Part shown: in pieces, positions 5,625 through 59,255 of the stretch
Numbering within the stretch: position 1 is the first letter of the stretch
Layout: each line of letters starts with the position of its first letter
Source: Eledone cirrhosa
Taxonomy: Eukaryota
Reading direction: 5' to 3'
Length of the DNA stretch: 64,000 bases
Assembly: GCA_964016885.1 (NCBI GenBank)
Contig: OZ024742.1
Span: 77,438,001-77,502,000 of the forward strand
Program-made: the position numbers and the translations under genes
The notes under the pieces: generated by a model
The model's database searches: none
Told to the model about the DNA's origin: nothing
What the model saw: only the letters and a program-made list of their open reading frames with translations

Positions 5625-6550
5625 CCTCATTAAGATCCATAACAAAAAAATAGAAACAGACATATACTACAAGCCCACAGACTCCAAGCAATATCTTCTT
5701 TTCAACTCTTGCCACCCTAGACACGTTAACATTAATATTCCCTACAACTTAGCCAAGAGAATCTGTACTATAGTCTCCAATAAAAACACCTGCTACTTAC
5801 GGCTATAAGAACTAAAGGACACACTCATAGGCAGGGACTACCCTGCATCACTAATTGACAATGGAATCCAACGTGCCCTAAAACTCAGTACCCAGGACCT
5901 TAGACACCCTAAAGTAAATCAACCGAAACTAAAAGCTCTTCCATACATCTCCACACACAACCCCCTCAACAATGAGGCCTTTGACACCATCCTCCAGAAC
6001 ATCCCTGTGTTGAAATAGGACCATAGAATGAACCAAATCCTACGAACACACAATATCATAAAGAGCAAAAGACAATGTAAGTCAATGAAAAACATCCTAA
6101 CACATGGAAAAGTACTGCCAACCACAACAACGAAACCCACAGTAAAAAAATGCGATAGACCCAACTGTGGCATTTGTATCAACCCAATAGAGGGTTCGGA
6201 ATTCTATTTCAAAGAAGCACAACGTTTTATAGTAAAACACAATTTCACATGCGCATCAGAAACATTTAATATATGTATTAACTTGCTCAGGTTGTCGAGA
6301 ACAATACATAGGCCAGATCAAAAACAGCTTCCGCCAACGCATGACTGTCCATAGATCCCAAATTAAAATACGGGAATACAGGAAAATACCACTGAGTGAA
6401 CACATTGATACCTGTGCCGCCCAAAATCATCCCAACTTCAGAATCTTTTCCCTCTATAAATTTTAAGATAATGCCACCCACACCCAGCGCATCAGCAAGG
6501 AATCTTACTTTATTAACAAATACGCACCCCGTCTAAACACTTCTCCCTAA
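5625..6550 (+). pseudogene. PLE RT thumb, Cys-rich linker and GIY-YIG endonuclease, disrupted
   Basis: IPYNLAKRICTIVS, YPASLIDNGI, KCDRPNCGIC, FTCASE, and after a frameshift IYVLTCSGCREQYIGQ; stops and frameshifts present. Confidence 0.85.
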
Positions 6551-9955: not shown

Positions 9956-10140
9956 TAATAATTGTTTCTACGTCAGGCACAAGGCCAGCAATTATCCAGT
10001 GCATTACTGGTACTTTATTTTATTGACCCCGTAAGGATGAAAGGCAAAGTTAACTTCGGCGGGATTTGAACTCAGAATGGCAAGGGCCGTAACTCTATAC
10101 GTCAAAGCATGGCGTCCGACCCTCTCCCAATACTGCCAAT
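9956..10140 (-). mobile_element. SINE (family 1), near full length, inserted in the PLE
   Basis: Same body; B-box GAGTTCAAATCC on the minus strand. Confidence 0.85.
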
Positions 10141-11116
10141 AATATAAGCAGTAGTACTCCCGACGTCATTGTTAACTCTAGGCTAGATTCTGCAAACTCA
10201 AATACGACGCCAAACGTAACTTCGTCGATTGTTCATAATACCAATCTAAATCAGAAAACTATTATTCCTATCGTAAATAACTTCTCCAATCCAATTCCTC
10301 CTATAAATAACACTAGGTCACTTGTTAATAACTCTGTTAATCTCTCCAATCGCAATTGTAATTGCCCTATTAAAACTAAATGCCCTCTCAATAACCATTG
10401 TCTTGAAAGAAACTTAGTCTATGAATGTAAAGTTATAACTGATACCAATTCCTTTACCTATTTTGGTTCTACTTCCACTTCCTTCAAAGTGAGATTTTAT
10501 AACCACAATTCTTCTTTTAAATACCAACTTAAAAGAACTAACACGGCACTCTCAGAACTCATATGGTCCTTGAAAGACAAAACTATTAACTATAACATCT
10601 CTTGGACGAAGGTTTGTTCTGCCTCTCCCTATTTGAATGCCTCCGTATCTAGAACGTGGAATCTTTGTTTATCTGAGAAATTTACCATTATATCTAATTT
10701 AGATTCTATAATAAATAGACGCACTGATTTATTTTCTCTCTGCTTGCATAGAACATTCCATAAAGTATACAGCTAGTATCTAATACTTTAATAGTTTAAA
10801 ATCCTTTTTCTCAAAAGCTTATATATATTTCTTTAAAAATATACCCATCTTTCTACCCTATTTCAATATTATTTATTATACATTATATAATACTAGTTAC
10901 TCATTCTATATCCTTCCTCTTTATCACTTTCCTTTCTTCCTCTTTTCTTTCTTCTTTTTCTTTTTAATTTCTAACCTCTAAACTGTACTTTTTCTTCCTG
11001 ACTACTTCTCAATTCTTATTATTACTCACCACAACATATCCACTCTTCCATATTTCTTCATATCATGGGCCATACAAATTATTATTATCTTTTAAATACA
11101 TTATAGTATTACCTTT

Positions 11117-20695: not shown

Positions 20696-21140
20696 CTAGA
20701 TGATAAGAACATGATGATGTTGTTGTAATTCAATCCGGAGCTTTGTAGTTATGCAAGAGATGTTCGAGACGTGTGGACAACGTGTGAAGAATTCATATCT
20801 CGTGTTTAGGCAATCACTAGTGCATAATCTCTTTAGAATATTTATTCGTTCATTAATACATAGTCCACACGGATTTCCCCTTGCGTATGGCTTGGACTTG
20901 CTGATAGCTTTCCATTGAATGTAGTAGTTTATAGTTGAGTCATTGAGGGACCATACGTGGTTCGCGAGTTTCGTGGATAAACGACTGTCCGGGTACCTAA
21001 AGGTCGACTGGTGGTTCAGGAAATGTTCCTTAAATCGGCCCTCCGCCATACCCACAGAGGATTTGACCTCCTGTGGTTGATTTGGTCGGTTGGAAGTGAC
21101 CACAGTTTCATAAACTATAGCGGGTGTATTGCATTGCTGT
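20696..21140 (-). pseudogene. PLE (Naiad-like) GIY-YIG endonuclease fragment, 5'-truncated
   Basis: VGMAEGRFKEHFLNHQSTF, TKLANHVWSL, CGLCINER, CPH. Confidence 0.85.
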
Positions 21141-21581
21141 TGAAGGGGTCAAGCTTCGGGCTTACGGAAAGATCACCGTGGTGGGGTGTTGCTCCTAGGG
21201 CTGCTGGTGATGTGGGCCTTCATGTTCTTAGCGCAGGAGTATCCTAGTTTTACTTTGTGTCGGTTAAAGACATATATATATACATGTATGTGTGTGTGTG
21301 TATGCGTGTGTATGTATATACAAATATGCACACGAATACGTACATTGCTATAGACAATATATCAAAGAAAAATCATATATGTACCATAACTAAAGGTACT
21401 CCACGGGAGTTGCAGATATACACTTACACATAATCAATATGTCGTATACATGAAAGGATAGAGAAACCTTAACTGATGAATAAAGACATGAGAAAACTGT
21501 GTGAGACATACACAAAATAAATTCTAAAAACACATAAACAATAATTTATATAAATGATTTGCATACATGGACACGAGAGAC

Positions 21582-23070: not shown

Positions 23071-23963
23071 ATAAATCATGTCTATAGAATTATTAGATAA
23101 ATAAAATATATACCATTTCCTCTGCCAATCAGCATAATTAACCATATAAAAAATCAATTAGACCAAGCTATAAGGATAAAGGCTCCTATGAAGAAATCTC
23201 CGACAAATAACCGAAAGTGGCCTCTTCGCGGTGGCCCCAATAGAGTATTTATCCAACATTTCGACAGCATGTAGAAACTGACTAAATATACAATCAACCA
23301 TACACAATTAGGTATAAATTCAAACTAAGAAGAAATGTGTACATACCGTAACTATATCCCTACCATGGTTTCATCCGTATGTTTAGATATCCTATTAATA
23401 GGAAATCCACAGAGTTCGGATTCATCAGGAGACAAACTCAAAAAAATAGACACTTAGTTTCCCAAAGTGATCGCGCCAAAACTAGATTAAAAAATGGCTA
23501 AGAACCGTATCATGGCTGTGGTCAAGTTGGAAAGAATGTGATTAGTTGCTTACGGCGGGTAGGCTTGTTGCTAGAAAGCGCAGCCAAATATCGCCAAATT
23601 GTATATCAACCTAACGGGAGATTATTAAATATAAAGGTTTACATATACATAAAGTTATATATGTTTGTCAGTTTCTACATGCTGTCGAAATGTTGGATAA
23701 ATACTCTATTGGAGCCACCGCGAAGAGGCCACTTTCGGTTATTTGTCGGAGATTTCTTCATAGGAGCCTTTATCCTTATAGCTTGGTCTAATTGATTTTT
23801 TACATGGTTAATTATGCTGATTGGCAGAGGAAATGGTATATATTTTATTTATCTAATAATTCTATAGACATGATTTATGATATATTGCTCTGATTATTTA
23901 ATTTATTAATTCTTCATAGAGCCACAAAGTGACCGGTTGCAACTTTATGTATATGTAAACCTT

Positions 23964-23968
<5 letters not shown>
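23071..23968. repeat. ORF-less unit of about 648 bp present as two opposed, circularly permuted arms between (TA)n tracts
   Basis: 23667-23878 is the reverse complement of 23071-23282; 23941-23968 is the reverse complement of 23629-23656. Confidence 0.85.
23357..23432 (-). ncRNA. Type I hammerhead ribozyme with an extended stem II
   Basis: tctc-CTGATGA-ATCCG...CGGAT-GAAAC CATG GTA-ggga; inner hairpin gatttcctattaataggatatc. Confidence 0.85.
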
Positions 23969-23995
<27 letters not shown>

Positions 23996-24009
23996 ATATA
24001 TACATACAT

Positions 24010-25340
24010 CCTATACCGTCCTCCCTCATGATGACAGCCTCCGCGCTCCCCAACATTCTTTATATTTACGCCCTATCACTTACACCATTACTACCTCTCT
24101 TCTCTGTCAGGCCGAGCTTGATCTGACCCTCAATGGATTTTTTTTTTCTGGTGAATTTGATCAGCAGGTCTCTGGGGTAGCGATGGGAACGAGAATGGGT
24201 CCCAACTATGCCAACTTGTTTGTTGGCTACGTCGAAGCCCAGATCTTCTCCCAGTACGCTGGACCGACTCCTGAGCTATACATTCGTTATATCGACGACT
24301 GTATCGGCGCCATCTCTCTATCACGAGAACAGCTCGACTGTTTTCTTTCTTTTGTCCAATCTTTCCATCCTGCTCTCAATTTCACCTCCTCCGTCTCCGA
24401 TTCTTGTCTCTTTTCTAGATATCTCTCTATCTATTAATCACTCTCACCACACCCTCTCTACTTCCATATTCATTAAACCAACCCGACTCCCAATCTTACT
24501 TCGACTTCACTTCATCCCATCCAACCCACACCCAACACTCCATACCCTATTCCCAATTCCTCCGTTTTCGTCGAGTCTAAAGCCAGGACGACGATTTCGA
24601 AACCCATTCCCTTCGCATGGCTTTCTGCTTCATCCAGCATGTATATCCCCCCACCCTGATCTAAGCGGCTCTCACCCGCGCCTGTGAAACAGATCGCACC
24701 GCAGCCCGCTCACCTCAACCCCGCGCTCCCAACACCCACGTTCCTTTCCCTCTCTCCTAACACCCTATCACCCTACCACTTGGCCAATATATCCTCCGTT
24801 CCTTCCGCATCCTATTTTCTTACGCCATTATTTCGCGCTTTTTCCAAATCCACCTTTTAAGCGGACCCGCAAACTCCGCGACCTCCTGGTACGCAGTTGC
24901 TTCTCGTCCTCTCCGACGACTCCACCCGGCTCTCATCCTCGTTCCCGTTCACGCTGCAAAACTTGTCCCTTCATTTCCACCCTCACCACTCTTACAGGTC
25001 CTAACGGTCTTTCCGTATTCGCCAATCGTTCACCTGCACATCCACCCACGTTGTCTATGCCCGCCCGTGTTCCCTTTACATGTCTTTATATATCGGATAA
25101 ACGGGACGCCGTATGATTGACCGTTTTGCCGAGTATTGGAAGGACATACGACTTGGTTTCGATACTCCTCTCGCCCGTCATTTCTGTTCTCCTGGTAATT
25201 CTTCCCTACATGTTTCAGTCCTGGGTGTCCTTTTACATCATGGATCACAGGCCTCGTGCATCAGGACTGAACAAAGTCTGATACACCGCCTTGTGTCCTA
25301 TTCCCTTCTTGGTCTCAACTCGCATCCCCAATTTCTCTAA
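24010..25340 (+). pseudogene. PLE (Neptune-like) RT core to GIY-YIG, disrupted
   Basis: QVSGVAMGTRMGPNYANLFVGYVE, RYIDD, SFLDI, CKTCPFI, YIG*TGRRMIDRFAEY. Confidence 0.9.
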
Positions 25341-25484
25341 TACCCCGTCCATTATCACACCCCTAGATTCCTATAGTTTCTCTTGATCATTAAAATCTTC
25401 TTATGGATGGACCTGCTATTTTATCTAAAGACATCTTTTCCAATTCCAACCCGCTCATCCCCTCAATATATTTTATTTTTCATT

Positions 25485-25519
25485 CTCTCTTCTGATGGAG
25501 GACTAGCGTCCGAAACGTT

Positions 25520-25520: not shown

Positions 25521-26377
<857 letters not shown>

Positions 26378-27883
26378 AGATTACAATAATCAAAGTTCAG
26401 TTTAAGTCATTTATTTGCTTACAATTGTTTCCTCCAAACCGAGGTTTGGATTGTTCGGAGCAACTATTTACTGATCTATAACATACTTGACCTCATTTTC
26501 AACCCAAGAGACACATAAAACATATGCGCATATTGCTCAATAGTGGGGTGACATTCATCAAATGATATAGCATGGCAATTTACATATAAAGGTTACAGGA
26601 TAAAAATAAAATAAAAACAAGAATGAAAATAAAGATAAACATGAAGCGTTGGCTGTCTATGAAAATAAAGCAAGAGGAAAGCTTAGAGTAGTCAGTGTAT
26701 GAAACAATCTAACGTGTAGTATGCACGCGTGTCTTATTTATACATGATTAAAGTGCGTCAGAATGATATTTGCAGGGTCAGGCAGTTGAAGCAGGCAATC
26801 GATCTTATTATGTGGGCTGAAATATTAAGTCATTTATTCTCATACATCTGTATGATATACAGTCTCGGATGCAGGGAAACAACAAAATATCAAAAACTTT
26901 CAACATACTATAAACCTTATTGTATCGTAGGCAAAGCCGTACCACTGTCTTCGCTCACACCACCACTCACATAATCCATGAGACGCAATATATATAGAGA
27001 ACACGTGTCTATCGTATAATTCGCGGTGGTTCAGCATATAATCAAGCTGTAAACCGCATCCAGTCGGTTCTTAATTAATAGATCATGCTGTCCAGATTCC
27101 GGAAGTGTCTGAATGACTAAGGGGAATTAATGCGTAAGGGGGGGTAACTAGCTAGTTATCTTAGTTAAATTTAACTAAGATAACTAGCTAGTAACCTCCC
27201 CTTACGCATTAATTCCCCTTAGTCATTCAGACATTTCCGGAATCTGGACAGCATGATCTATTAATTAAGAACCGACTGGATACGGTTTATAGCTTGATTA
27301 TATGCTGAACCACCGCGAATTATACGATAGACACGTGTTCTCTATATATATTGCGTCTCATGGATTATGTGAGTGGTGGTGTGAGCGAAGACAGTGGTAC
27401 GGCTTTGCCTACGATACAATAAGGTTTATAGTATGTTGAAAGTTTTTGATATTTTAGTGTTTCCCTGCATCCGAGACTGTATATCATACAGATGTATGAG
27501 AATAAATGACTTAATATTTCAGCCCACATAATAAGATCGATTGCCTGCTTCAACTGCCTGACCCTGCAAATATCATTCTGACGCACTCTAATCATGTATA
27601 AATAAGACACGCGTGCATACTACACGTTAGATTGTTTCATACACTGACTACTCTAAGCTTTCCTCTTGCTTTATCTTCATAGACAGCCAACGCTTCATGT
27701 TTATCTTTATTTTCATTCTTGTTTTTATTTTATTTTTATCCTGTAACCTTTATATGTAAATTGCCATGCTATATCATTTGATGAATGTCACCCCACTGTT
27801 GATCAATGCGCATATTGCGCATATGTTTTATGTGTCTCTTGGGTTGAAAAGGAGGTCAAGTATCTTATAGATCAGTAAATAGC

Positions 27884-27930
27884 TGCTCCGAAGAATCCAA
27901 ACCTCGGTTTGGAGGAAACAATTGTAAGCA
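27884..27930 (+). ncRNA. Hammerhead ribozyme in the 5' pLTR (U4C core variant)
   Basis: tgct-CCGAAGA-aTCCAAACC tc GGTTTGGAg-GAAAC AATT GTA-agca. Confidence 0.8.
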
Positions 27931-28184
27931 AATAAATGACTTAAACTGAACTTTGATTATTGTAATCTCTATATAACTGCTCTGTAAAACAACTGATGGT
28001 ATTACATTGAGCTATTTATCTTACTGGTAATAGGATAGTAATTAATGACTATCTTTCACTATTTAGGGTTTGTATATATAATATATTACCATTAAAGGTA
28101 TTATTGCATACATAACTATAAATAGTACAATTAATACTAATAACTGCTCCATTTTGTTGAGCTGATATACCATAAATTACCAGC

Positions 28185-31100
28185 ATGCTGATCAAAGACC
28201 AACTCCCTATGTCAACCAAGAACATACCTTTACCAACCAAAAATACATATGAAAAGTTGTTGATCAACAGTGTAAACTCGCTTATCAATAGAGTGAGATG
28301 GAGGACATTCCATTATGATAGAAACAAATCTGGCAACGATAATAACACTAACAAATTTGACTCCTTCGGCTTTAAAACATTTAGAAGCCCCCCTCATAAC
28401 ACACTACTAAACCACTTCGAAAACGACCTAATTAAACTAGTTAAAAACATTAAATACAAAAAACACCATAATAAAAACAACACCTTCTTAAACAAACTTA
28501 GCACCTCTATTAATGACTTCAAAACTAGTACTAAAATGTTTGTACATGCCGACAAAACTAACAACATATACAGCCTAGATTATCATACGTATAGAAAGTT
28601 TATATATAACTAGCAGTAAAGCCCGGCGTTGCTCGGGGTCGCTCAGTAGCTGTGTTAAAGTTACAATGTTAAGTTTCTTTTTTGGCTTAAAAGCTGTAGT
28701 GTCTACTGTGCAGACTTGCATGTGGTGTTTTTGATTAATATTCCCTCAACCAACAATATGCCTTATGAAGTTAAGAAAACATAACGATAACCCGAATGTT
28801 ATAACAAAAGAGGATGCTGGGGATAAAAACTGCACTGGTTATTTATTAACAAAGATCGAAAATGTAAACACTGCAACGCAGAGAAAAACATTAGCGTAAC
28901 CAAATTATCAGTTATGTCTGTCTGCACGCCTATATCACCTCTCTGCACGACTGTCTGTCTGCACGCCTGAAATATTTGCTTGTTTTACGTAGTCTTTAAA
29001 TAGACTTGTTTTCAAGTAAAAATATTGTTTTAAAATGCTTTTAAATGGAAATGAAGCAAAACGGAAGCTTAGTGTTCGAACTGATGAATTTTGCAGGTCA
29101 ATATTTTGCTGGCTCGACAACTGTTCGTGTATTGTGTTAATGTCATTTTAAACCCTGAGAAAGCCAGCGTAATATTTTACGTAAGACGCTCAATGTAAAC
29201 AGAACAAAGGGAAACAACTGATCACTTACGCTCAAAAATCGATACATTATATTCGATTTCGTCAGATAGGGCGGGTCAATTTGAAATATTTTTTTCCGAT
29301 GTCTTCGCTAGGGCTCAATGTACAAGTATAGCAATTTCGGTGCAATTCCGTCAGAGATTCTAAGAGGAGATGTGTGCCAAAAATCGATAGACAGACAGAC
29401 AACCACAGTTTTATATATATAGATGAACTACATAAAAGCTACAAGAAAACCACTATGAAAAACTTAGAAGATATTAATATGGAAGGCTATAATATAGTAT
29501 CCAAACTAGGGCTCCAGAGACATACACAACCTTACACCCCAAACCCCCCTATATTCTCTCTGAAGGACCATAAGGTAGACTTCATTAGCAAACCTTCGAT
29601 TAGACTAATCTGCCCCTCCAGGTCTGACATTGGCATTATCAGTAAAAAAATCCTAGACAAAATCATCCCACAGATTAAACACAAGATTTACCTTAAACAA
29701 TGGGGAAATACGGGTGAAGTGATTGAATGGTTCAAAAATATCATAGATAACAAGGATAAAAAATTTATTCAATTTGATATCAACTCTTACTACACCTCTA
29801 TTTCCCCTATCCTACTAAATAAGGCACTTATAATGGCCATGGACAATAGTGACTTGACTAGACCCCAGATTGATGTCATACTTGCGGCCCGTAAAACAAT
29901 AATCACCTTTGAAGACCAATTATGGACCCGCAAGGATACGCAAAACAACTTCGACATTACTATGGGGTCTAGTGACTCGGCGCAGGTCACTGATTTAGTT
30001 GGCCTATACTTACTTAACCTAATCCACAGGGAACTTCCGTACCTCAGCGGTGGTTTGTATCGCGACGATGCACTTCTACTTATAGACTATACAAAATTCA
30101 ATATAGAAAGGACTTGAAAACTATTGCACAAAACATTCAAAAACTTTAACCTTAGTATTACCATGGACAAAAACACCAAAAACGTCAACTTCCTAGACGC
30201 CACACTCTACTTAGACTCAATGATATATGCACCTTTCCACAAACCTAATGAAAAACTCATCTACGTAGATACCAAGTCTAACCACCCTAAATCTATATTG
30301 AACTCTATCTCTAAGGGAGTATCTAATAGAATCTCTAATCTATCCTATGACATAAACACATTTAACAATAACTCGCAGTATTATAATCAGGCATTAGCTA
30401 GATCAGGCCATAATACAGGGATAGAGTTCCTACCTACAAAAACACATAGCTACAACATCTTTTCACACAACATGTCCATGGGAAAATTTAATAATAGGAA
30501 TAGCAACTGCGCACACACTAATAGGGATTGTAACAACAAGAGTAACCCGCACCACAGAAATGACCATAGGAACATTAAAGGAAAGAAATCACCATACATA
30601 AAAAACAGAAATAGAAGAAGAAATAATACATTTTTCAACCCTCCTTTCAATTTAAACGTCTCTACCAACCTTCCTAGGGCTTTCTTCTCACTACTAGATA
30701 AACACTTCCCATCCGGCCACAGGTACCACGGCCTTTTAAACAAAAACACTATTAAGATCTCATACTCTACTACGCCTAACTTAGCATACCACATAGCTAG
30801 TACAAATAAAAGAAAAATTAATTCTTACTTCCAACAAACTAAATCACAACGGTCGATAAACCTTCAAAATAACATTCAAAATAACAGTCAAAGTAACATT
30901 ATAACAAATAACCGTAATATCACTGGAAATAATAGTAATAGCACTAGTGTAAACATTAACGCTGCGTACCACAACCCACATAACCATAACCCTATAGCTA
31001 ACATCCAAACTTCTACACAGCATAGTAACCGGCAGACTAGCACCCAGAGTAATTGTAACTGTAGATCAAGTAGAACCTGCCCTTTAGATAAAAAATGCTT

Positions 31101-31482
31101 AACCAAGGATATCATATACTCATGTACAGTCACAACTAACAGCTCTTCTGAAACCTACATAGGCTCCACTTCTAACTGCTTCAAAACTAGATACAATTCG
31201 CACCTCCACTCTTTCAAAAAACACAGTCTAGCCAACTCCACTTCACTATCTAGCTACATACACTATCTAAAAACTAAAAATAAAATATATACACTTAAAT
31301 GGGAAGTGGTAGGTAGTGCAACATCGTACAAACGACCAGATACATTTTGTAACCTCTGTCTACTAGAGACCCATACTATCATCTTCTCTAAACATAATCT
31401 CCTTAATAAAAAATCAGATGTGTTCGCAACTTGCCAACACCGCTTCCGACACTCGTTCCAAAACTTTAAACCCTATATATAA
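28185..31482 (+). pseudogene. PLE polyprotein (RT + GIY-YIG) split by a Helitron and one in-frame TGA at 30115-30117
   Basis: STKNIP, ADKTNN, LKDHK, FDINSYY, TMGSSDSAQVTDLVG, LYRDD, NFLD, CNCR..CPL..C, IIY..ETYIGST, CNLCLLE, CQH; the frame is restored on removing 28610-29423. Confidence 0.95.
28610..29423 (-). mobile_element. Non-autonomous Helitron, 814 bp
   Basis: Minus strand starts TCTATATATATAAAA, has (GTCT)n near the 5' end, and ends in hairpin cccgagcaacgccggg + CTAG; inserted between A and T with no TSD. Confidence 0.9.
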
Positions 31483-33008
31483 TAATGTCAGACTGGAACC
31501 GGCACCACCCCTAGCAATTAACATCAGTAGCACACCTTACACCTCACATCCACACCCATCTCTATACTCTAAAGATAATACTGACAGCATTTTAGTACCA
31601 CCTACCCTGGGAATATCCCCTTGTACCTCTAATTCTGATATCTCGACCGTGGACTACTTATTCTGCATTGCACAAATATAAGATTGGTATAAACTGGGGA
31701 CACGGTACTGGTTGCGATAACATAGTCCTGTGCATGGATTCCCACCAAGAGATAGATTGATGATTAGATAGATAATCGTATTGTTATGTGAATATATACT
31801 GTAAACGATCAGTTCAATGAATTATGCACGTAATCATCTTGATGTGAACTCCTTTAATACCTATTAATAGACTCCACTCTAGCTTGTAGATGTGATACTT
31901 AATTGATTTATATATGAGACGGGGGTTGTCTATTGCTTTATGACCAGACTAGTGCCTTTATATGAGAGATTGGATCTCCGGACCATACCGAAGATTTACT
32001 GGAGATCCAGACATGCAGTGACCCGGAGTCTACCGGGTGGCATATATAATAGTGGGACCATACGAGGTCCTACTGTTATATTACATTTGCATGGAACAGT
32101 GACTTGAGAGTCTGACTCCTCTTATAGAATGTTCAGATATGACACCCCTTAATGGATGGTAATCATCCTAATATATACACCCTTGTACTTCTTAATGGAC
32201 AACTCTCTAACCTATAAATGGGTAACATACTCTAGAAATTAGTTATAACTTCATATGATAGGCACGTATTTGAATCACCATTAATGTAGTTTAGGATAGT
32301 AACTTAACTAAGATAACTAGCTAGTTACCTCCCCTTACGCATTAATTCCCTTAGTCATTCAGACACTTCCGGAATCTGGACAGCATGATCTATTAATTAA
32401 GAACCGACTGGATACGGTTTATAGCTTGATTATATGCTGAACCACCGCGAATTATACGATAGACACGTGTTCTCTATATATATTGCGTCTCATGGATTAT
32501 GTGAGTGGTGGTGTGAGCGAAGACAGTGGTACGGCTTTGCCTACGATACAATAAGGTTTATAGTATGTTGAAAGTTTTTGATATTTTGGTGTTTCCCTGC
32601 ATCCGAGACTGTATATCATACAGATGTATGAGAATAAATGACTTAATATTTCAGCCCACATAATAAGATCGATTGCCTGCTTCAACTGCCTGACCCTGCA
32701 AATATCATTCTGACGCACTCTAATCATGTATAAATAAGACACGCGTGCATACTACACGTGAGATTGTTTCATACACTGACTACTCTAAGCTTTCCTCTTG
32801 CTTTATCTTCATAGACTGCCAACGCTTCATGTTTATCTTTATTTTCATTCTTGTTTTTATTTTATTTTTATCCTGTAACCTTTATATGTAAATTGCCATG
32901 CTATATCATTTGATGAATGTCATCCCACTGTTGATCAATATGCGCATATGTTTTATGTGTCTCTTGGGTTGAAAAGGAGGTCAAGTATGTTATAGATCAG
33001 TAAATAGC

Positions 33009-33055
33009 TGCTCCGAAGAATCCAAACCTCGGTTTGGAGGAAACAATTGTAAGCA
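33009..33055 (+). ncRNA. Hammerhead ribozyme in the 3' pLTR
   Basis: Identical to 27884-27930. Confidence 0.8.
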
Positions 33056-33259
33056 AATAAATGACTTAAACTGAACTTTGATTATTGTAATCTCTATATA
33101 ACTGCTCTGTAAAACAACTGATGGTATTACATTGAGCTATTTATCTTACTGGTAATAGGATAGTAATTAATGACTATCTTTCACTATTTAGGGTTTGTAT
33201 ATATAATATATTACCATTAAAGGTTTTATTGCATGCATAACCATAAATAGTACCCTTAA

Positions 33260-41454: not shown

Positions 41455-42445
41455 AGAGTCTTGACGTTTCGGACACTAGTCGTTCATAAGAAGAAAGATT
41501 CAGAAATAAAATAGATTGAGGAGATGGGCGGGATGGAATTGGGAAAAAATGTATTTAGATAAAAATAACAGGTCCATTCATGTTGACATCTCTTGCTGCT
41601 GGCGTTTTGTGTATGATTTGTTTTTTAGAAAAGTGTATGATGGAGCGTGCCTACCTGAAATGGAAAAATAAACCGTTTTGGAAAAAGAGCTATAGTTGAG
41701 CACGTGCGTCAGCATGTGTTTGTGTGTGTATGTGTATGTCTGTGTGCGCGTGTATGTGTTCGTGTGTGTGCGTGTGTTATTATAGGTCCGTACGAAGTTA
41801 AGAAGAAATATGTGTGTATATGTGAGTAAAAGAGTGTGTGTGTGTGTATGTATGTACGAAGCTATGACCAAAAGTATGTTAATATGAGGGTGTGAATCGG
41901 CATGTATTACTTGTAAGAGAAGCTGCTAATGCTCAAGAAAAAGCGATAGGAATCTAGGGGTGTGATAATGGAATTACAGAAATTGCGGAGGTGAGTCGAG
42001 TCCAAGAAGGGAATAGGACCCAAGGCGGTGAATCAGACTTTCTTTAGTCCTGGTGCGTGAGGCCTGTGATCCATGATGTAAAAGGACACCCAGGACTGAA
42101 ACATGTAGGGAGGAATAACCAGGAGAACAGAAATGACGGGCGACAGGAGTATCCAAACCGAGTCGTATGTCCCTCAAATATTCAGCAAAACGGTCCGCCA
42201 TACGGCGTCCCTTTTGTTCGATATATAAAGACCCGGAAAGGGAACAGTGGAGGTCATAGACAACTTGGGTGGATGTGCAGGTGAAGGAATGGCGAATACG
42301 GAAAGACCATTAGGGCCTGTAAGAGTGGTGAGGATGGAAATAATGGGAAAATTGTTGCAGCGGTAACGGGAACAAGGATGAGAGCCGGGTGGAGTCGTGG
42401 CAGAGGAAAAAATGGAACTGCGAAGCAGGAGGTCGCAGAGGTTGC
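41455..42445 (-). pseudogene. Second, fragmented copy of the 24-25.5 kb PLE family (GIY-YIG and pLTR with an HHR at about 41459-41495)
   Basis: DRFAEYLRDIRLGLDTPVARHF matches the 25113 ORF; tctt-CTTATGA-acGAC tagt GTCc-GAAACGTC-aaga. Confidence 0.85.
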
Positions 42446-42462
42446 GGGGGAATGGTTAAAAG

Positions 42463-46218: not shown

Positions 46219-46605
46219 AATGGACACTGACCAAGAAACTCACTCAGATGGTGGATGGGTGCTACACGAGAATGCTGAGGATGGCTCTGAACATAAATCA
46301 GTATACACTGAGGATGAAAAACTCAGAGCTGTATGGGAGCATCCCAAAAGTCAGCTCAAAAGTGACACAGAGGAGACTGAGGTTGGCTGGACATGCTCAC
46401 CAATATCCAGAGTTGACATTGCACTCAGTGCTCCTTTGGGAGCCACTACATGGACACACTAGAAGAGGAAGACCAAGGTTAAGATATGTTGATGCCCTAA
46501 GGACAGACACTGGTCTGTTGGAGATGCAGGATGTGGCAGCGATAATGAGGGACAGAGACCGCTGAAGAGAACTCGTCCATGGATCTCGGGAATTTTACCC
46601 GCCTT

Positions 46606-46610
<5 letters not shown>
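46219..46610 (+). mobile_element. RTE-clade LINE 3' fragment
   Basis: WTLT..DGCYTRMLRMALNI...RRLRLAGH...RGRPRLRYVD. Confidence 0.85.
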
Positions 46611-46644
<34 letters not shown>

Positions 46645-46653
<9 letters not shown>

Positions 46654-49600
46654 GATCGAGTATCGAAAAATCGGCGCACGAGTTCACGAAAAACGAAATT
46701 CGATATGAGCGGCAGAGGGCTCAATAATTCAGATGAATCAGAGCTATAACTATCGTTAAAATACCGTCACATATAGAACAAGTCTACAATCAACCATACG
46801 ATTTAAAATCGATAAAGGAAGATTCGGGCCAAACAGATAAAAAATATCAATAAAACAATACGTCAATAATTTAAATGAATGTAAAATCATACCCGGACCC
46901 ACTAGAAAGGTGTTAAATCTAGCTTCATGGGTTTCTGTAAATCCTTAGACAGTACTCTATCAGCTCACATATAAATATAAAAGCCTACTAGAATAAGTGG
47001 AACGGAGTTTACTTTGTCAACGAGTTTTATCCTGGCGGCAAAGGAGTCAACTAGCGGTGAAAAACGCACATGGCATTAGACAAGGGAGATGACCCCTATA
47101 TCCGCGAAAACAATTCGAGTGAATGTGGAAATACACATATCGAATTAGAGTGCTCAATAGACATGTTAAAATAAAACAAAAGCTATTCATCACTCAATAG
47201 AATCGACAAAAAATGAGCAATAAAATTAACTGGTGGATAGCTATGTCCAGAGCTAAATATATTAGAAAGATCGAGTATCGAAAAATCGGCGCACGAGTTC
47301 ACGAAAAACGAAATTCGATATGAGCGGCAGAGGGCTCAATAATTCAGATGAATCAGAGCTATAACTATCGTTAAAATACCGTCACATATAGAACAAGTCT
47401 ACAATCAACCATACGATTTAAAATCGATAAAGGAAGATTCGGGCCAAACAGATAAAAAATATCAATAAAACAATACGTCAATAATTTAAATGAATGTAAA
47501 ATCATACCCGGACCCACTAGAAAGGTGTTAAATCTAGCTTCATGGGTTTCTGTAAATCCTTAGACAGTACTCTATCAGCTCACATATAAATATAAAAGCC
47601 TACTAGAATAAGTGGAACGGAGTTTACTTTGTCAACGAGTTTTATCCTGGCGGCAAAGGAGTCAACTAGCGGTGAAAAACGCACATGGCATTAGACAAGG
47701 GAGATGACCCCTATATCCGCGAAAACAATTCGAGTGAATGTGGAAATACACATATCGAATTAGAGTGCTCAATAGACATGTTAAAATAAAACAAAAGCTA
47801 TTCATCACTCAATAGAATCGACAAAAAATGAGCAATAAAATTAACTGGTGGATAGCTATGTCCAGAGCTAAATATATTAGAAAGATCGAGTATCGAAAAA
47901 TCGGCGCACGAGTTCACGAAAAACGAAATTCGATATGAGCGGCAGAGGGCTCAATAATTCAGATGAATCAGAGCTATAACTATCGTTAAAATACCGTCAC
48001 ATATAGAACAAGTCTACAATCAACCATACGATTTAAAATCGATAAAGGAAGATTCGGGCCAAACAGATAAAAAATATCAATAAAACAATACGTCAATAAT
48101 TTAAATGAATGTAAAATCATACCCGGACCCACTAGAAAGGTGTTAAATCTAGCTTCATGGGTTTCTGTAAATCCTTAGACAGTACTCTATCAGCTCACAT
48201 ATAAATATAAAAGCCTACTAGAATAAGTGGAACGGAGTTTACTTTGTCAACGAGTTTTATCCTGGCGGCAAAGGAGTCAACTAGCGGTGAAAAACGCACA
48301 TGGCATTAGACAAGGGAGATGACCCCTATATCTGCGAAAACAATTCGAGTGAATGTGGAAATACACATATCGAATTAGAGTGCTCAATAGACATGTTAAA
48401 ATAAAACAAAAGCTATTCATCACTCAATAGAATCGACAAAAAATGAGCAATAAAATTAACTGGTGGATAGCTATGTCCAGAGCTAAATATATTAGAAAGA
48501 TCGAGTATCGAAAAATCGGCGCACGAGTTCACGAAAAACGAAATTCGATATGAGCGGCAGAGGGCTCAATAATTCAGATGAATCAGAGCTATAACTATCG
48601 TTAAAATACCGTCACATATAGAACAAGTCTACAATCAACCATACGATTTAAAATCGATAAAGGAAGATTCGGGCCAAACAGATAAAAAATATCAATAAAA
48701 CAATACGTCAATAATTTAAATGAATGTAAAATCATACCCGGACCCACTAGAAAGGTGTTAAATCTAGCTTCATGGGTTTCTGTAAATCCTTAGACAGTAC
48801 TCTATCAGCTCACATATAAATATAAAAGCCTACTAGAATAAGTGGAACGGAGTTTACTTTGTCAACGAGTTTTATCCTGGCGGCAAAGGAGTCAACTAGC
48901 GGTGAAAAACGCACATGGCATTAGACAAGGGAGATGACCCCTATATCCGCGAAAACAATTCGAGTGAATGTGGAAATACACATATCGAATTAGAGTGCTC
49001 AATAGACATGTTAAAATAAAACAAAAGCTATTCATCACTCAATAGAATCGACAAAAAATGAGCAATAAAATTAACTGGTGGATAGCTATGTCCAGAGCTA
49101 AATATATTAGAAAGATCGAGTATCGAAAAATCGGCGCACGAGTTCACGAAAAACGAAATTCGATATGAGCGGCAGAGGGCTCAATAATTCAGATGAATCA
49201 GAGCTATAACTATCGTTAAAATACCGTCACATATAGAACAAGTCTACAATCAACCATACGATTTAAAATCGATAAAGGAAGATTCGGGCCAAACAGATAA
49301 AAAATATCAATAAAACAATACGTCAATAATTTAAATGAATGTAAAATCATACCCGGACCCACTAGAAAGGTGTTAAATCTAGCTTCATGGGTTTCTGTAA
49401 ATCCTTAGACAGTACTCTATCAGCTCACATATAAATATAAAAGCCTACTAGAATAAGTGGAACGGAGTTTACTTTGTCAACGAGTTTTATCCTGGCGGCA
49501 AAGGAGTCAACTAGCGGTGAAAAACGCACATGGCATTAGACAAGGGAGATGACCCCTATATCCGCGAAAACAATTCGAGTGAATGTGGAAATACACATAT

Positions 49601-52600
49601 CGAATTAGAGTGCTCAATAGACATGTTAAAATAAAACAAAAGCTATTCATCACTCAATAGAATCGACAAAAAATGAGCAATAAAATTAACTGGTGGATAG
49701 CTATGTCCAGAGCTAAATATATTAGAAAGATCGAGTATCGAAAAATCGGCGCACGAGTTCACGAAAAACGAAATTCGATATGAGCGGCAGAGGGCTCAAT
49801 AATTCAGATGAATCAGAGCTATAACTATCGTTAAAATACCGTCACATATAGAACAAGTCTACAATCAACCATACGATTTAAAATCGATAAAGGAAGATTC
49901 GGGCCAAACAGATAAAAAATATCAATAAAACAATACGTCAATAATTTAAATGAATGTAAAATCATACCCGGACCCACTAGAAAGGAGTTAAATCTAGCTT
50001 CATGGGTTTCTGTAAATCCTTAGACAGTACTCTATCAGCTCACATATAAATATAAAAGCCTACTAGAATAAGTGGAACGGAGTTTACTTTGTCAACGAGT
50101 TTTATCCTGGCGGCAAAGGAGTCAACTAGCGGTGAAAAACGCACATGGCATTAGACAAGGGAGATGACCCCTATATCCGCGAAAACAATTCGAGTGAATG
50201 TGGAAATACACATATCGAATTAGAGTGCTCAATAGACATGTTAAAATAAAACAAAAGCTATTCATCACTCAATAGAATCGACAAAAAATGAGCAATAAAA
50301 TTAACTGGTGGATAGCTATGTCCAGAGCTAAATATATTAGAAAGATCGAGTATCGAAAAATCGGCGCACGAGTTCACGAAAAACGAAATTCGATATGAGC
50401 GGCAGAGGGCTCAATAATTCAGATGAATCAGAGCTATAACTATCGTTAAAATACCGTCACATATAGAACAAGTCTACAATCAACCATACGATTTAAAATC
50501 GATAAAGGAAGATTCGGGCCAAACAGATAAAAAATATCAATAAAACAATACGTCAATAATTTAAATGAATGTAAAATCATACCCGGACCCACTAGAAAGG
50601 TGTTAAATCTAGCTTCATGGGTTTCTGTAAATCCTTAGACAGTACTCTATCAGCTCACATATAAATATAAAAGCCTACTAGAATAAGTGGAACGGAGTTT
50701 ACTTTGTCAACGAGTTTTATCCTGGCGGCAAAGGAGTCAACTAGCGGTGAAAAACGCACATGGCATTAGACAAGGGAGATGACCCCTATATCCGCGAAAA
50801 CAATTCGAGTGAATGTGGAAATACACATATCGAATTAGAGTGCTCAATAGACATGTTAAAATAAAACAAAAGCTATTCATCACTCAATAGAATCGACAAA
50901 AAATGAGCAATAAAATTAACTGGTGGATAGCTATGTCCAGAGCTAAATATATTAGAAAGATCGAGTATCGAAAAATCGGCGCACGAGTTCACGAAAAACG
51001 AAATTCGATATGAGCGGCAGAGGGCTCAATAATTCAGATGAATCAGAGCTATAACTATCGTTAAAATACCGTCACATATAGAACAAGTCTACAATCAACC
51101 ATACGATTTAAAATCGATAAAGGAAGATTCGGGCCAAACAGATAAAAAATATCAATAAAACAATACGTCAATAATTTAAATGAATGTAAAATCATACCCG
51201 GACCCACTAGAAAGGTGTTAAATCTAGCTTCATGGGTTTCTGTAAATCCTTAGACAGTACTCTATCAGCTCACATATAAATATAAAAGCCTACTAGAATA
51301 AGTGGAACGGAGTTTACTTTGTCAACGAGTTTTATCCTGGCGGCAAAGGAGTCAACTAGCGGTGAAAAACGCACATGGCATTAGACAAGGGAGATGACCC
51401 CTATATCCGCGAAAACAATTCGAGTGAATGTGGAAATACACATATCGAATTAGAGTGCTCAATAGACATGTTAAAATAAAACAAAAGCTATTCATCACTC
51501 AATAGAATCGACAAAAAATGAGCAATAAAATTAACTGGTGGATAGCTATGTCCAGAGCTAAATATATTAGAAAGATCGAGTATCGAAAAATCGGCGCACG
51601 AGTTCACGAAAAACGAAATTCGATATGAGCGGCAGAGGGCTCAATAATTCAGATGAATCAGAGCTATAACTATCGTTAAAATACCGTCACATATAGAACA
51701 AGTCTACAATCAACCATACGATTTAAAATCGATAAAGGAAGATTCGGGCCAAACAGATAAAAAATATCAATAAAACAATACGTCAATAATTTAAATGAAT
51801 GTAAAATCATACCCGGACCCACTAGAAAGGTGTTAAATCTAGCTTCATGGGTTTCTGTAAATCCTTAGACAGTACTCTATCAGCTCACATATAAATATAA
51901 AAGCCTACTAGAATAAGTGGAACGGAGTTTACTTTGTCAACGAGTTTTATCCTGGCGGCAAAGGAGTCAACTAGCGGTGAAAAACGCACATGGCATTAGA
52001 CAAGGGAGATGACCCCTATATCCGCGAAAACAATTCGAGTGAATGTGGAAATACACATATCGAATTAGAGTGCTCAATAGACATGTTAAAATAAAACAAA
52101 AGCTATTCATCACTCAATAGAATCGACAAAAAATGAGCAATAAAATTAACTGGTGGATAGCTATGTCCAGAGCTAAATATATTAGAAAGATCGAGTATCG
52201 AAAAATCGGCGCACGAGTTCACGAAAAACGAAATTCGATATGAGCGGCAGAGGGCTCAATAATTCAGATGAATCAGAGCTATAACTATCGTTAAAATACC
52301 GTCACATATAGAACAAGTCTACAATCAACCATACGATTTAAAATCGATAAAGGAAGATTCGGGCCAAACAGATAAAAAATATCAATAAAACAATACGTCA
52401 ATAATTTAAATGAATGTAAAATCATACCCGGACCCACTAGAAAGGTGTTAAATCTAGCTTCATGGGTTTCTGTAAATCCTTAGACAGTACTCTATCAGCT
52501 CACATATAAATATAAAAGCCTACTAGAATAAGTGGAACGGAGTTTACTTTGTCAACGAGTTTTATCCTGGCGGCAAAGGAGTCAACTAGCGGTGAAAAAC

Positions 52601-53534
52601 GCACATGGCATTAGACAAGGGAGATGACCCCTATATCCGCGAAAACAATTCGAGTGAATGTGGAAATACACATATCGAATTAGAGTGCTCAATAGACATG
52701 TTAAAATAAAACAAAAGCTATTCATCACTCAATAGAATCGACAAAAAATGAGCAATAAAATTAACTGGTGGATAGCTATGTCCAGAGCTAAATATATTAG
52801 AAAGATCGAGTATCGAAAAATCGGCGCACGAGTTCACGAAAAACGAAATTCGATATGAGCGGCAGAGGGCTCAATAATTCAGATGAATCAGAGCTATAAC
52901 TATCGTTAAAATACCGTCACATATAGAACAAGTCTACAATCAACCATACGATTTAAAATCGATAAAGGAAGATTCGGGCCAAACAGATAAAAAATATCAA
53001 TAAAACAATACGTCAATAATTTAAATGAATGTAAAATCATACCCGGACCCACTAGAAAGGTGTTAAATCTAGCTTCATGGGTTTCTGTAAATCCTTAGAC
53101 AGTACTCTATCAGCTCACATATAAATATAAAAGCCTACTAGAATAAGTGGAACGGAGTTTACTTTGTCAACGAGTTTTATCCTGGCGGCAAAGGAGTCAA
53201 CTAGCGGTGAAAAACGCACATGGCATTAGACAAGGGAGATGACCCCTATATCCGCGAAAACAATTCGAGTGAATGTGGAAATACACATATCGAATTAGAG
53301 TGCTCAATAGACATGTTAAAATAAAACAAAAGCTATTCATCACTCAATAGAATCGACAAAAAATGAGCAATAAAATTAACTGGTGGATAGCTATGTCCAG
53401 AGCTAAATATATTAGAAAGATCGAGTATCGAAAAATCGGCGCACGAGTTCACGAAAAACGAAATTCGATATGAGCGGCAGAGGGCTCAATAATTCAGATG
53501 AATCAGAGCTATAACTATCGTTAAAATACCGTCA
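46645..53534. repeat. Tandem array of 11 full 615 bp units plus about 125 bp, nearly identical, ORF-less and hairpin-rich
   Basis: Unit starts at 46645, 47260, 47875 ... 53410; only two substitutions noticed (about 48333 and 49986). Confidence 0.97.
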
Positions 53535-53598
53535 TATATAAATATATACATATATATATATATATATATAATATATATATAAAATATATATATATATA

Positions 53599-53630
<32 letters not shown>

Positions 53631-53643
53631 ATATATATATATA

Positions 53644-53684
<41 letters not shown>

Positions 53685-53781
53685 TATATAATATATATAA
53701 TATATATATATATATAAAATATATATATATATAATATATATAATATATATAATATATATATATAAAATATATATATATATA

Positions 53782-53824
<43 letters not shown>

Positions 53825-53830
53825 TATATA

Positions 53831-53877
<47 letters not shown>

Positions 53878-53897
53878 TATATATATATAATATATAT

Positions 53898-53940
<43 letters not shown>

Positions 53941-54058
53941 TATATATATATAATATATATATATATATAATATACGTTATTCCGGGTTAAAACGGAGGTA
54001 ACCACAGTAAGTAAGGTACTCAATACATAGCAGAGTATAAAAGTTTTAATATAGATGC

Positions 54059-54514: not shown

Positions 54515-55138
54515 TTCTAATTTCTGCCGGACCGGCAACCGCTCTTTCAAACCAGTTCCTGTACACAGCTAAGTATTCTATAAGTCTCTAGCTGTGTCAT
54601 TCTCGATAAAAGCATTGGATATGTAATCCTGATGATTTCAAATAAGAATGAAACGCGTAGGTTACTTCCCTTGCTTTTATCGAGAATCTCGAATTGTAAT
54701 ACGTGACGTATTCTATTCTATAGCGATTAGGTCTTCAAAATGTTTATTATAAACATACAGAATATTTTCGAATATTCTATGCTTGTCTTCACATATATAT
54801 CGCTATTTCAGAGCATTAAATCCAAATTCTAATTTCTGCCGGACCGGCAACCGCTCTTTCAAACCACTTCCTGTACACAGCTAAGTATTCTATAAGTCTC
54901 TAGCTGTGTCATTCTCGATAAAAGCATTGGATATGTAATCCTGATGATTTCAAATAAGAATGAAACGCGTAGGTTACTTCCCTTGCTTTTATCGAGAATC
55001 TCGAATTGTAATACGTGACGTATACTATTCTATAGCGATTAGGTCTTCAAAATGTTTATTATAAACATACAGAATATTTTCGAATATTCTATGTTTGTCT
55101 TCACATATATATCGCTATTTCAGAGCATTAAATCCAAA
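54515..55138 (+). repeat. 312 bp unit x2, each with a type I HHR (54623-54665 and 54935-54977); retrozyme-like
   Basis: gtaatc-CTGATGA-tTTC aaataa GAAt-GAAAC GC GTA-ggttac. Confidence 0.9.
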
Positions 55139-55329
55139 TATATATATATATATATAAATATATATATATATACATACACACATATACATACATACACACA
55201 TACATATACACAGACACATATATATACATATATACACACATATATACACACATACACACACATATATATATATATATGTGTGTGTGTATGTGTATGTATG
55301 TATATGTGTGTACACACACCTGCCCACAC

Positions 55330-55785: not shown

Positions 55786-55989
55786 TACATATACACACAT
55801 ACAAACAAATATATACACATACAAGTAAATAGCTACTCAATAAATATACGCATATACGCAGGCAGAAAATGTAGATACAAAAGAGGTACTCACATAACCA
55901 TAGTGGCCGTATTTCAGGTTGAGGAGAGGTGGGGGGTAGGGTGGGGAGGAGGTATAGGGGCCAATAGGGGGAGGTCGTTTTTAGCCATC

Positions 55990-56315
55990 GGGCTTTAACA
56001 CTGGCTTAAAGTGTTTGAATGTTGCAAAGTTCTTGTGCATGCAGTTCGGGGAGTGTTCAGAGAGTTTGTTCAGTAGCGGGCCCTTGGCGAATAAAATTTC
56101 GTAGCTCTCTGAAATACAAAGGTCGCAGCCCTTGTGTCCTCCGTTGTAAGAGCGCGCTTTCTGGAGTATTTTCCAATTAAGCGTGAAGGGGGTGGAGTTC
56201 CTTTTAAGGTCCCAAACGTAGGAGGCGAGTGTTGTCTGATTTGATTTATCCGGTCATCTGAAGGAGTGGGTATGGGCATACCAACGGGTCTTAAAGTTGT
56301 TAGAGGTCATGCCGA

Positions 56316-56320: not shown

Positions 56321-57649
<1,329 letters not shown>

Positions 57650-57650
<1 letters not shown>

Positions 57651-59055
57651 CAATTAAGTTAAAGTGTACATCTACATATGTATACGGAAGTATTAGTATG
57701 CATATAAATACACACATGTATACATATGTACATGTACTCAGCTTTTCACTAGACACTTTACAGTGAGTGTCAGCTAGTCTGTATGTAACCACACAGGCGG
57801 ACCGGGTTTTAGAGTCATACGAGTTTACATGTGTGTATTTATATGCATACTAATACTTCCGTATACATATGTAGATGTACACTTTAACTTAATTGTTTAA
57901 GCGTCAGTCATACAAAAGTGAGTTAGAAGCGAAACGAAATTTAATTTCGTTTCGTTATTTGTTTTTATCGTTTCCGCTGAACCGGTGCGTACAATGACTC
58001 ACGTTCTATGCAAATTGGTCTACCCACTACTAATTTTCATAGAAAAAGCATATAACGATATGTGCTTTTACAATTCTCCAGAGAAGCCGGAAGATGGGTA
58101 AATATTGCTGATGAGATGTAATAACATCGAAACTAGTCCAATATTCCTGTCTGGCCCTCCGGGGAATAGAGGAAATGTGTTTCCTTGATAACTCGTATGA
58201 CTCTAAAACCCGGTCCGCCAGTGTGGTTACATACAGACTAGCTGACACTCACTGTAAAGTGTCTAGTGAAAAGCTGAGTACATGTACATATGTATACATG
58301 TGTGTATTTATATGCATACTAATACTTCCGTATACATATGTAGATGTACACTTTAACTTAATTGTTTAAGCGTCAGTCATACAAAAGTGAGTTAGAAGCG
58401 AAACGAAATTTAATTTCGTTTCGTTATTTGTTTTTATCGTTTCCGCTGAACCGGTGCGTACAATGACTCACGTTCTATGCAAATTGGTCTACCCACTACT
58501 AATTTTCATAGAAAAAGTATATAACGATATGTGCTTTTACAATTCTCCAGAGAAGCCGAAGATGGGTAAATATTGCTGATGAGATGTAATAACATCGAAA
58601 CTAGTCCAACATTCCTGTCTGGCCCTCTGCAGAATAGAGGAAATGTGTTTCCTTGAAAACTCGTATGACTCTAAAACCCGGTCCGCCTGTGTGGTTACAT
58701 ACAGACTAGCTGACACTCACTGTAAAGTGTCTAGTGAAAAGCTGAGTATATGTACATATGTATACATGTGTGTATTTATATGCATACTAATACTTCCGTA
58801 TACATATGTAGATGTACACTTTAACTTAATTGTTTAAGCGTCAGTCATACAAAAGTGAGTTAGAAGCGAAACGAAATTTAATTTCGTTTCGTTATTTGTT
58901 TTTATCGTTTCCGCTGAACCAGTGCGTACAATGACTCACGTTCTATGCAAATTGGTCTACCCACTACTAATTTTCATAGAAAAAGCTTATAACGATATGT
59001 GCTTTTACAATTCTCCAGAGAAGCCGGAAGATGGGTAAATATTGCTGATGAGATG
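57650..59055 (+). repeat. 469 bp HHR-bearing unit x at least 2.6 with an inverted left arm (57650-57825); runs into an assembly gap
   Basis: HHRs start at 58101, 58569 and 59038 (the last is cut by Ns). Confidence 0.9.
58101..58145 (+). ncRNA. Canonical type I hammerhead ribozyme
   Basis: aatattg-CTGATGA-GATGT aata ACATC-GAAAC TA GTC-caatatt; 7 bp stem I and 5 bp stem II. Confidence 0.92.
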
Positions 59056-59255
59056 NNNNNNNNNNNNNNNNNNNNNNNNNNNNNNNNNNNNNNNNNNNNN
59101 NNNNNNNNNNNNNNNNNNNNNNNNNNNNNNNNNNNNNNNNNNNNNNNNNNNNNNNNNNNNNNNNNNNNNNNNNNNNNNNNNNNNNNNNNNNNNNNNNNNN
59201 NNNNNNNNNNNNNNNNNNNNNNNNNNNNNNNNNNNNNNNNNNNNNNNNNNNNNNN
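59056..59255. other. Assembly gap (200 N)
   Basis: Seen directly. Confidence 1.

Follow-up and report, generated by a model that had tools for sequence, protein, structure and literature searches.

A tandem array of a 615-bp unit with a predicted hammerhead variant in Eledone cirrhosa, probably one young insertion of a non-LTR retrozyme

How does a 615-bp unit come to stand eleven times in succession, nearly without change, inside a (TA)n tract? The question is raised by a window of 64,000 nt from Eledone cirrhosa (GCA_964016885.1, contig OZ024742.1, positions 77,438,001 to 77,502,000; all coordinates below are those of this window). An earlier note, made from the letters alone, had read the array as one recent insertion produced by a reverse transcriptase (RT) circling a structured RNA. 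This interpretation proved largely right, being partly supported by the results given here: the array is likely one young insertion of a protein-free non-LTR retrozyme, for which an RT of the Penelope-like element (PLE) type probably circled a 615-nt RNA about 11 times.

The array and its hammerhead variant

The array occupies 46642..53534 and comprises 11.21 units of 615 bp, i.e., 11 full units and one partial unit, the copy number being given as assembled. Its RNA sense is taken to be the minus strand, in line with the polarity of the fixed end and the strand of the hammerhead (see below). At a period of 615, 6096/6100 positions match, as compared to 1518–1923 at neighbouring periods, which confirmed the low divergence noticed earlier; the array carries two substitutions, C>T at 48333 and T>A at 49986. 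An ORF of 60 aa or more is absent, as the note had stated; the longest stop-to-stop frame (62 aa, minus strand) contains no start-codon ORF of that length. The unit is non-coding, has a GC content of 36%, and shows no LTR structure. One base, present in all 11 units, sets the array apart from every other array examined.

Both ends merge into (TA)n, and this could be read in the sequence. On one side, the (TA)n target (46608..46647) is followed directly by TTAGAAAG on the plus strand; on the other, a partial unit with a variable, 5′-truncated end (53410..53534, minus strand) meets a degenerate (TA)n flank (53535..53974) at GTCA followed by TATATA. The left flank (46221-46607) consists of a piece of a different abundant repeat, which is present three times in the window, appears LINE-like by eye, and has no Pfam match; the array occupies the (TA)n at the end of this repeat.

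The hairpins named in the note exist in the unit, and the excess of structure over shuffled controls that it had expected was found to be modest only, both in linear folding of the whole unit (20 shuffles; z −2.4 on the plus and −2.9 on the minus strand) and in circular folding (60 shuffles; z −1.5 and −2.6). A ribozyme motif of the retrozyme type was recovered on the minus strand by aligning subfamilies, with evidence from folding, shuffling, covariation, and model matches. This type I hammerhead variant, the first of 11 copies of which lies at 46891..47025 (minus strand), measures 135 nt. Helix I consists of 5 bp (ACUCG/CGGGU), the core reads UUGACAA with one extra A, and helix II (GUAAA-UCC/GGAUUUAC) encloses a 60-nt extension and is followed by one extra A and GAAA. 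A long helix III (ACCC/GGGU plus an inner helix) then leads to GUC, after which the cut is predicted, between 46896 and 46895. The variant is matched by the model in all 11 full units at 615-bp steps, the last copy being located at 53041-53175 (minus strand), and the unconstrained local minimum-energy fold of the region in the window is the hammerhead itself. A descriptor composed after the motif had been seen matched 3/5000 shuffles, and 0/5000 also adopted the fold. A first guess with the core CUGAUAGA was abandoned, as the helices it implied are not conserved. On the minus strand at 46888-46895, a GTATG, GTAAG, or GTGAG starts three bases past the predicted cut in all subfamilies and resembles a 5′ splice donor.

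Searches with Rfam (array start, window, and four older copies) missed the family hammerhead and returned (TA)n artefacts or matches elsewhere, and a strict CUGANGA descriptor found nothing in the unit. In the two youngest subfamilies alone, no two-sided change was detected in hammerhead pairs. When a family of 70% identity was added, 99.2% of cells paired and two helix II pairs changed on both sides, which is one lineage split and not many events. Genome-wide, a general hammerhead pattern gave 4,562 matches and none in the control. A further 29 copies were selected for a change at position 10.2, L317 being dropped due to a chance 5′ half. In these copies the partner base became G in 27/29, the unconstrained strand of helix I pairs in 27–28/29 at four positions, all four bases occur at N7, and (TA)n lies 241–247 nt from the cut in 16/29. 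In older subfamilies, helix II is poorly preserved at pairs 3, 4, and 5 (19, 12, and 21/29). The core pair 3·8 is U3·R8, with U3·G8 in some subfamilies and C3·A8 in 3/29 further copies. In the whole-unit fold another pairing displaces helix I, and in several copies of older subfamilies the local best fold differs from the full hammerhead. A metagenome scan yielded five matches, none with hammerhead helices. At the base of helix II, hammerheads tolerate a U-U mismatch (PMC3088659, PMC7229834, available sections), and the A·A or C·A of this family can be understood likewise. Judged by these models, the unit carries a conserved type I hammerhead fold with predicted self-cleaving activity.

A dispersed family with one fixed end

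A genome-wide search had been proposed in the earlier note, with the expectation of dispersed (TA)n loci that differ in permutation point and copy number. In the genome of 3.0 Gb, a one-unit query gave 534 candidates, with 220 unit matches among the 35 that were scored; the 150 unit matches listed are all near-identical and spread over many contigs. For 34 loci fetched from the unit-search matches and chosen without regard to their ends, the same unit position stands against (TA)n in 32, with the opposite end scattered, which is what internal initiation of the PLE type would produce; of the remaining two, one has its end ~6 nt off and the other is interrupted by a gap. The expectation of young, dispersed copies in (TA)n with variable copy number thus held, while free permutation of both ends was rejected.

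The fixed 3′ end of the element, which would be the main start of reverse transcription (site 1), corresponds to 46642..46660 (minus strand) in the window. It lies at the same site in older subfamilies as well as in the related family of 70% identity, which was found via a chance match in a flank and has spacings of 601–609 bp. The exact fixed-junction pattern was matched 715 times in the genome, and its reversed control 0 times. All 97 fixed junctions listed on one contig (C1) were then taken in position order: 35/97 copies consist of one unit or less and the others reach up to at least 25 units, the range across the family being <0.1 to at least 25 units. Once the junctions with an unreached far end had been set aside (2/56 and 7/41 in two batches), TA repeats adjoin the variable end in 35/54 and 22/34 copies.

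A second fixed site (46751..46762, minus strand), 109 nt from site 1, is not an end in the window copy; elsewhere it forms the outer end of inverted arms. Such an arm occurs in 3/34 of the loci first fetched, ending at this site in all three, and the 12 exact (TA)n junctions of the second site belong to eight two-armed and four single-armed insertions. Within the sequence fetched for the C1 sample, no inversions were found. Target-site duplications are unreadable inside the (TA)n flanks. Four loci (L279, L295, L304, and L306) contain precisely one or two whole units and end at the internal TA-like unit boundary.

Fixed end, variable end, arrays, and inverted arms from a second site together make up the anatomy of a PLE insertion, and the 715 junctions, the 5′ truncation, and the strand-biased errors described below argue that the dispersed copies were made by retrotransposition. 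The minus strand is the likely RNA because of these PLE traits, namely the fixed 3′ end, 5′ truncation, arms, two start sites, and a microsatellite target.

Near-identical units were also seen in the runs X2, X3, and X6, whose labels name three different organisms; two of these runs contain older variants as well. Among contigs of four sequencing runs, a 645-nt contig spans the unit and returns after 615, as tandem DNA would too, and a run guessed to be RNA contained one 144-nt exact piece of the unit; neither result has a bearing on expression.

Copying errors, short copies, and competing explanations

For the 38 arrays of at least three units, 20 majority haplotypes were distinguished, with a median distance of 5 between arrays and 75 departures in 288 units inside them (L049 left out); two minor variants occur in more than one array, neither in register. 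Array-wide haplotypes with few internal departures indicate that each array descends from one monomer. Within 46 arrays, 58 substitutions were counted on the cDNA strand, with A>G 17 versus T>C 0 (p=4e-4) and C>T 12 versus G>A 4, and the bias is alike in both genomic orientations. L064, on a noisy small contig, was left out of the haplotype, variant-recurrence, and error-spectrum analyses, and the chimeric L049 out of the error spectrum. Wobble errors are established polymerase behaviour, and the strand-biased spectrum fits such errors on minus-strand RNA and not later DNA mutation. A-to-I editing of plus-strand RNA was considered as the source of A>G and is made less likely by the strand of the hammerhead, the polarity of the fixed end, and the excess of C>T. 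The proposal that an RT made the array from one monomer is supported by the haplotypes and the RT-like errors.

Some variants arise mid-array and then persist, and others recur in non-adjacent units (L088 units 5, 9, 10, 12, and 13; L101 units 20 and 22–25; L053 units 1, 4, and 6), as would be expected from re-reading of one damaged template, the alternative being conversion. Adjacent-unit variants occur in L045, L052, and L103. In L049 (G000:C24:28.62 Mb), the haplotype changes at units 6–7 of 12, beside a gap, by template switch, recombination, or an assembly join. Arrays with no or almost no internal change already have 16–25 units.

A different footprint was found in copies no longer than one unit. 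In the first C1 batch, 8/22 of them end at unit positions 230–256 (actual ends 231–246; scan-corrected p 0.0002 under a uniform and 0.01 under a declining null), and in the second batch, for which the interval had been predicted beforehand, 4/13 do so (p=0.002). Multi-unit copies end there in 2/32 and 2/21 cases (4/53 in total). A cleaved linear monomer would offer 254 nt from the start site to its 5′ end. As the pile-up stops 4–23 nt short of the cut within an AT-rich stretch, microhomology contributes, and trimming to microhomology must be assumed. The pile-up suggests that linear monomers were used as templates. Across the cut itself, at positions 250–260, three within-array variants were counted in 369 unit passes, and such nearly error-free passes favour a ligated circle over jumping.

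The best reading of these sequence footprints is that both cleaved linear monomers and circles served as templates. Minus-strand multimers would self-cleave to monomers, some of which would be ligated to circles and give rise to the long arrays; on unligated monomers the enzyme would meet the cut 5′ end after only 254 nt, which would yield the common copies of ~240 bp. Priming by the Penelope-like RT would take place at nicked (TA)n, with an internal start at site 1 and, in two-armed insertions, at site 2 on the opposite DNA end. The array in the window likely goes back to a single such event, in which one 615-nt RNA circle was read about 11 times.

It is unlikely that the same retrozyme and enzyme built arrays from linear cleaved monomers only, with the enzyme jumping, once at a 5′ end, to the 3′ end of that monomer or of another one. 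Use of linear monomers is itself implied by the short copies, and the switch of haplotypes within L049 and the variants that begin mid-array and persist would also suit jumping; yet the few variants at the cut would demand almost flawless jumps, ends near it are not in excess among multi-unit copies, and known retrozymes form abundant circles, as stated in the available part of PMC7229834.

Copying of long uncleaved multimeric transcripts with internal priming, the ribozyme being slow or idle, is rated as quite unlikely. In vitro, PLE insertion did not need hammerhead cleavage and its main substrate was unprocessed RNA (PMC11167929, available sections), and RT errors on such a template would be equally strand-biased. 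However, such copying only shortens, yet 20 array-wide haplotypes exist, several of them in arrays of 9–25 units; the two minor variants common to more than one array are out of register; and the ends near the cut site are left unexplained.

We regard as very improbable that short PLE-type insertions grew by duplication or conversion at the DNA level, as a satellite, or that the assembly was over-expanded. It has been proposed that a satellite can grow out of the terminal repeat of a PLE (10.64898/2026.07.22.740005, as far as available), the adjacent-unit variants could be read in this way, and the copy number is that of the assembly. The error spectrum, however, is biased relative to the element in both orientations, unchanged or almost unchanged arrays are already long, and the ends lie mid-unit at scattered positions. 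Helitron or Helentron-type rolling-circle DNA transposition also yields tandem arrays with one fixed end, the Helitron end motif being a 5′ TC; it can practically be dismissed here, as the fixed end, (TA)n followed by TTAGAAAG, has no 5′ TC, and an RNA intermediate fits the conserved hammerhead, the RT-like errors, and the second fixed site of the two-armed insertions.

Relation to known elements and significance

By sequence criteria, the element is a non-LTR retrozyme, and it would work like one; all comparisons here refer to the available portions of the cited sources. As in the metazoan non-LTR retrozymes of coral, mussel, and axolotl (PMC7229834) and those of vertebrates (10.64898/2026.07.22.740005), it consists of non-coding tandem repeats with GC <45%, there is one type I hammerhead per unit, and dispersed copies range from monomers to multimers, with PLEs coexisting. 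The unit of 615 nt is larger than the tested circles of retrozymes (170–400 nt) and falls within a surveyed range of 51–972 bp. Unlike that of the metazoan retrozymes described there, the predicted hammerhead is non-canonical, 135 nt long, and missed by Rfam and the strict descriptor. Of nine retrozyme dimers tested in vitro, eight did not cleave (10.64898/2026.07.22.740005).

The hammerheads of PLEs (PMC4209133) share the U3-A8 core variant, a nucleotide between 9 and 10.1, G10.1-C11.1, a long helix II, and a helix I of 4–5 bp. Helix III is long and stable here, which in the same source holds for fungal and protist but not for metazoan PLEs, and the further A before G12, the U3·G8 of some subfamilies, and the 60-nt helix II extension differ from the PLE hammerheads described there. 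In its insertion anatomy, the element resembles PLEs and non-autonomous PLEs such as MRC1 (PMC8557442, PMC11167929): the 3′ end is fixed and the 5′ end truncated, copies stand head to tail, a 5′ arm may be inverted, there are two start sites, and the target is a microsatellite. For PLEs, these sources describe two sites of internal initiation, insertion into AT-rich targets, and copies inverted at the 5′ end. The start sites, between which PLEs carry a tail, are 109 nt apart here, as compared to 30–40 bp for the tail, and, unlike the PLEs and MRC1 described there, the element has no ORF and forms arrays that reach at least 25 units. Non-autonomous PLEs are active in an alga (PMC9977147).

One PLE RT query gave 28,735 candidates genome-wide, and the 150 that were scored included young PLEs with intact ORFs of 830–832 aa; in the two families examined, the repeats have no similarity to the unit. 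Neither 12 stretches of these two young intact families nor the 26 sources searched contained an autonomous PLE whose repeat matches. A pattern with the same core and a short helix II matched 13 times versus 5 in the control, none of the matches being a partner.

The window holds other elements of related kinds. A Penelope/Poseidon-like element at 26371-33100 has 753-bp inverted ends between (TA)n tracts, and its close relatives have intact ORFs of 830–832 aa, many identical scores, and two end sites 164 nt apart. At 57647-59056, a 468-bp tandem repeat of 2.6 copies, which ends in a gap, has a canonical minimal hammerhead on the plus strand, as well as a ~180-bp arm in inverted orientation that abuts (TA)n; it looks like another retrozyme-like family. 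A 312-bp dimer at 54515-55139, which has a minimal hammerhead on the plus strand (U·U at the helix II base) and ends in (TA)n, is possibly a PLE terminal repeat. Decayed PLE-like RT or GIY-YIG fragments at 5900-6500, 10093-10776, 20696-21148, 23910-25500, 41900-42450, and 55870-56306 were judged by eye from motifs, and those that were scanned had no Pfam match.

The class and the proposed mechanism are already known, the gain being the hammerhead form and three footprints. Circle-templated insertion has been proposed for retrozymes (PMC7229834, 10.64898/2026.07.22.740005), and rolling reverse transcription by PLEs of a ribozyme-made RNA circle since 2014 (PMC4209133, PMC7229834); in the literature searched, no demonstration of the latter was found. 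Three sequence footprints bear on it here, i.e., array-wide haplotypes, strand-biased errors, and clustering of ends at the predicted cut in short copies only, and the family names exact sites, the predicted cut and two putative start sites. The hammerhead form appears to be new, and similar variants may stand in the supplements of PMC4209133 and PMC7229834.

More broadly, and with somewhat less than even confidence, the family could be an old clade of retroelements with circular RNAs of ~600 nt and one undescribed long hammerhead form in ~4,500 copies. Its genomic copies would then record an entire life cycle, with self-cleavage in vivo seen in run-off copies near the cut, ligation, and rolling reverse transcription of single RNA molecules over as many as 25 or more turns, lesions of the template being read again on successive turns. 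An enzyme able to write concatemers of up to 15 kb into (TA)n on a small RNA template would also be of practical interest. As the hammerhead form is missed by standard searches, current retrozyme counts may be low.
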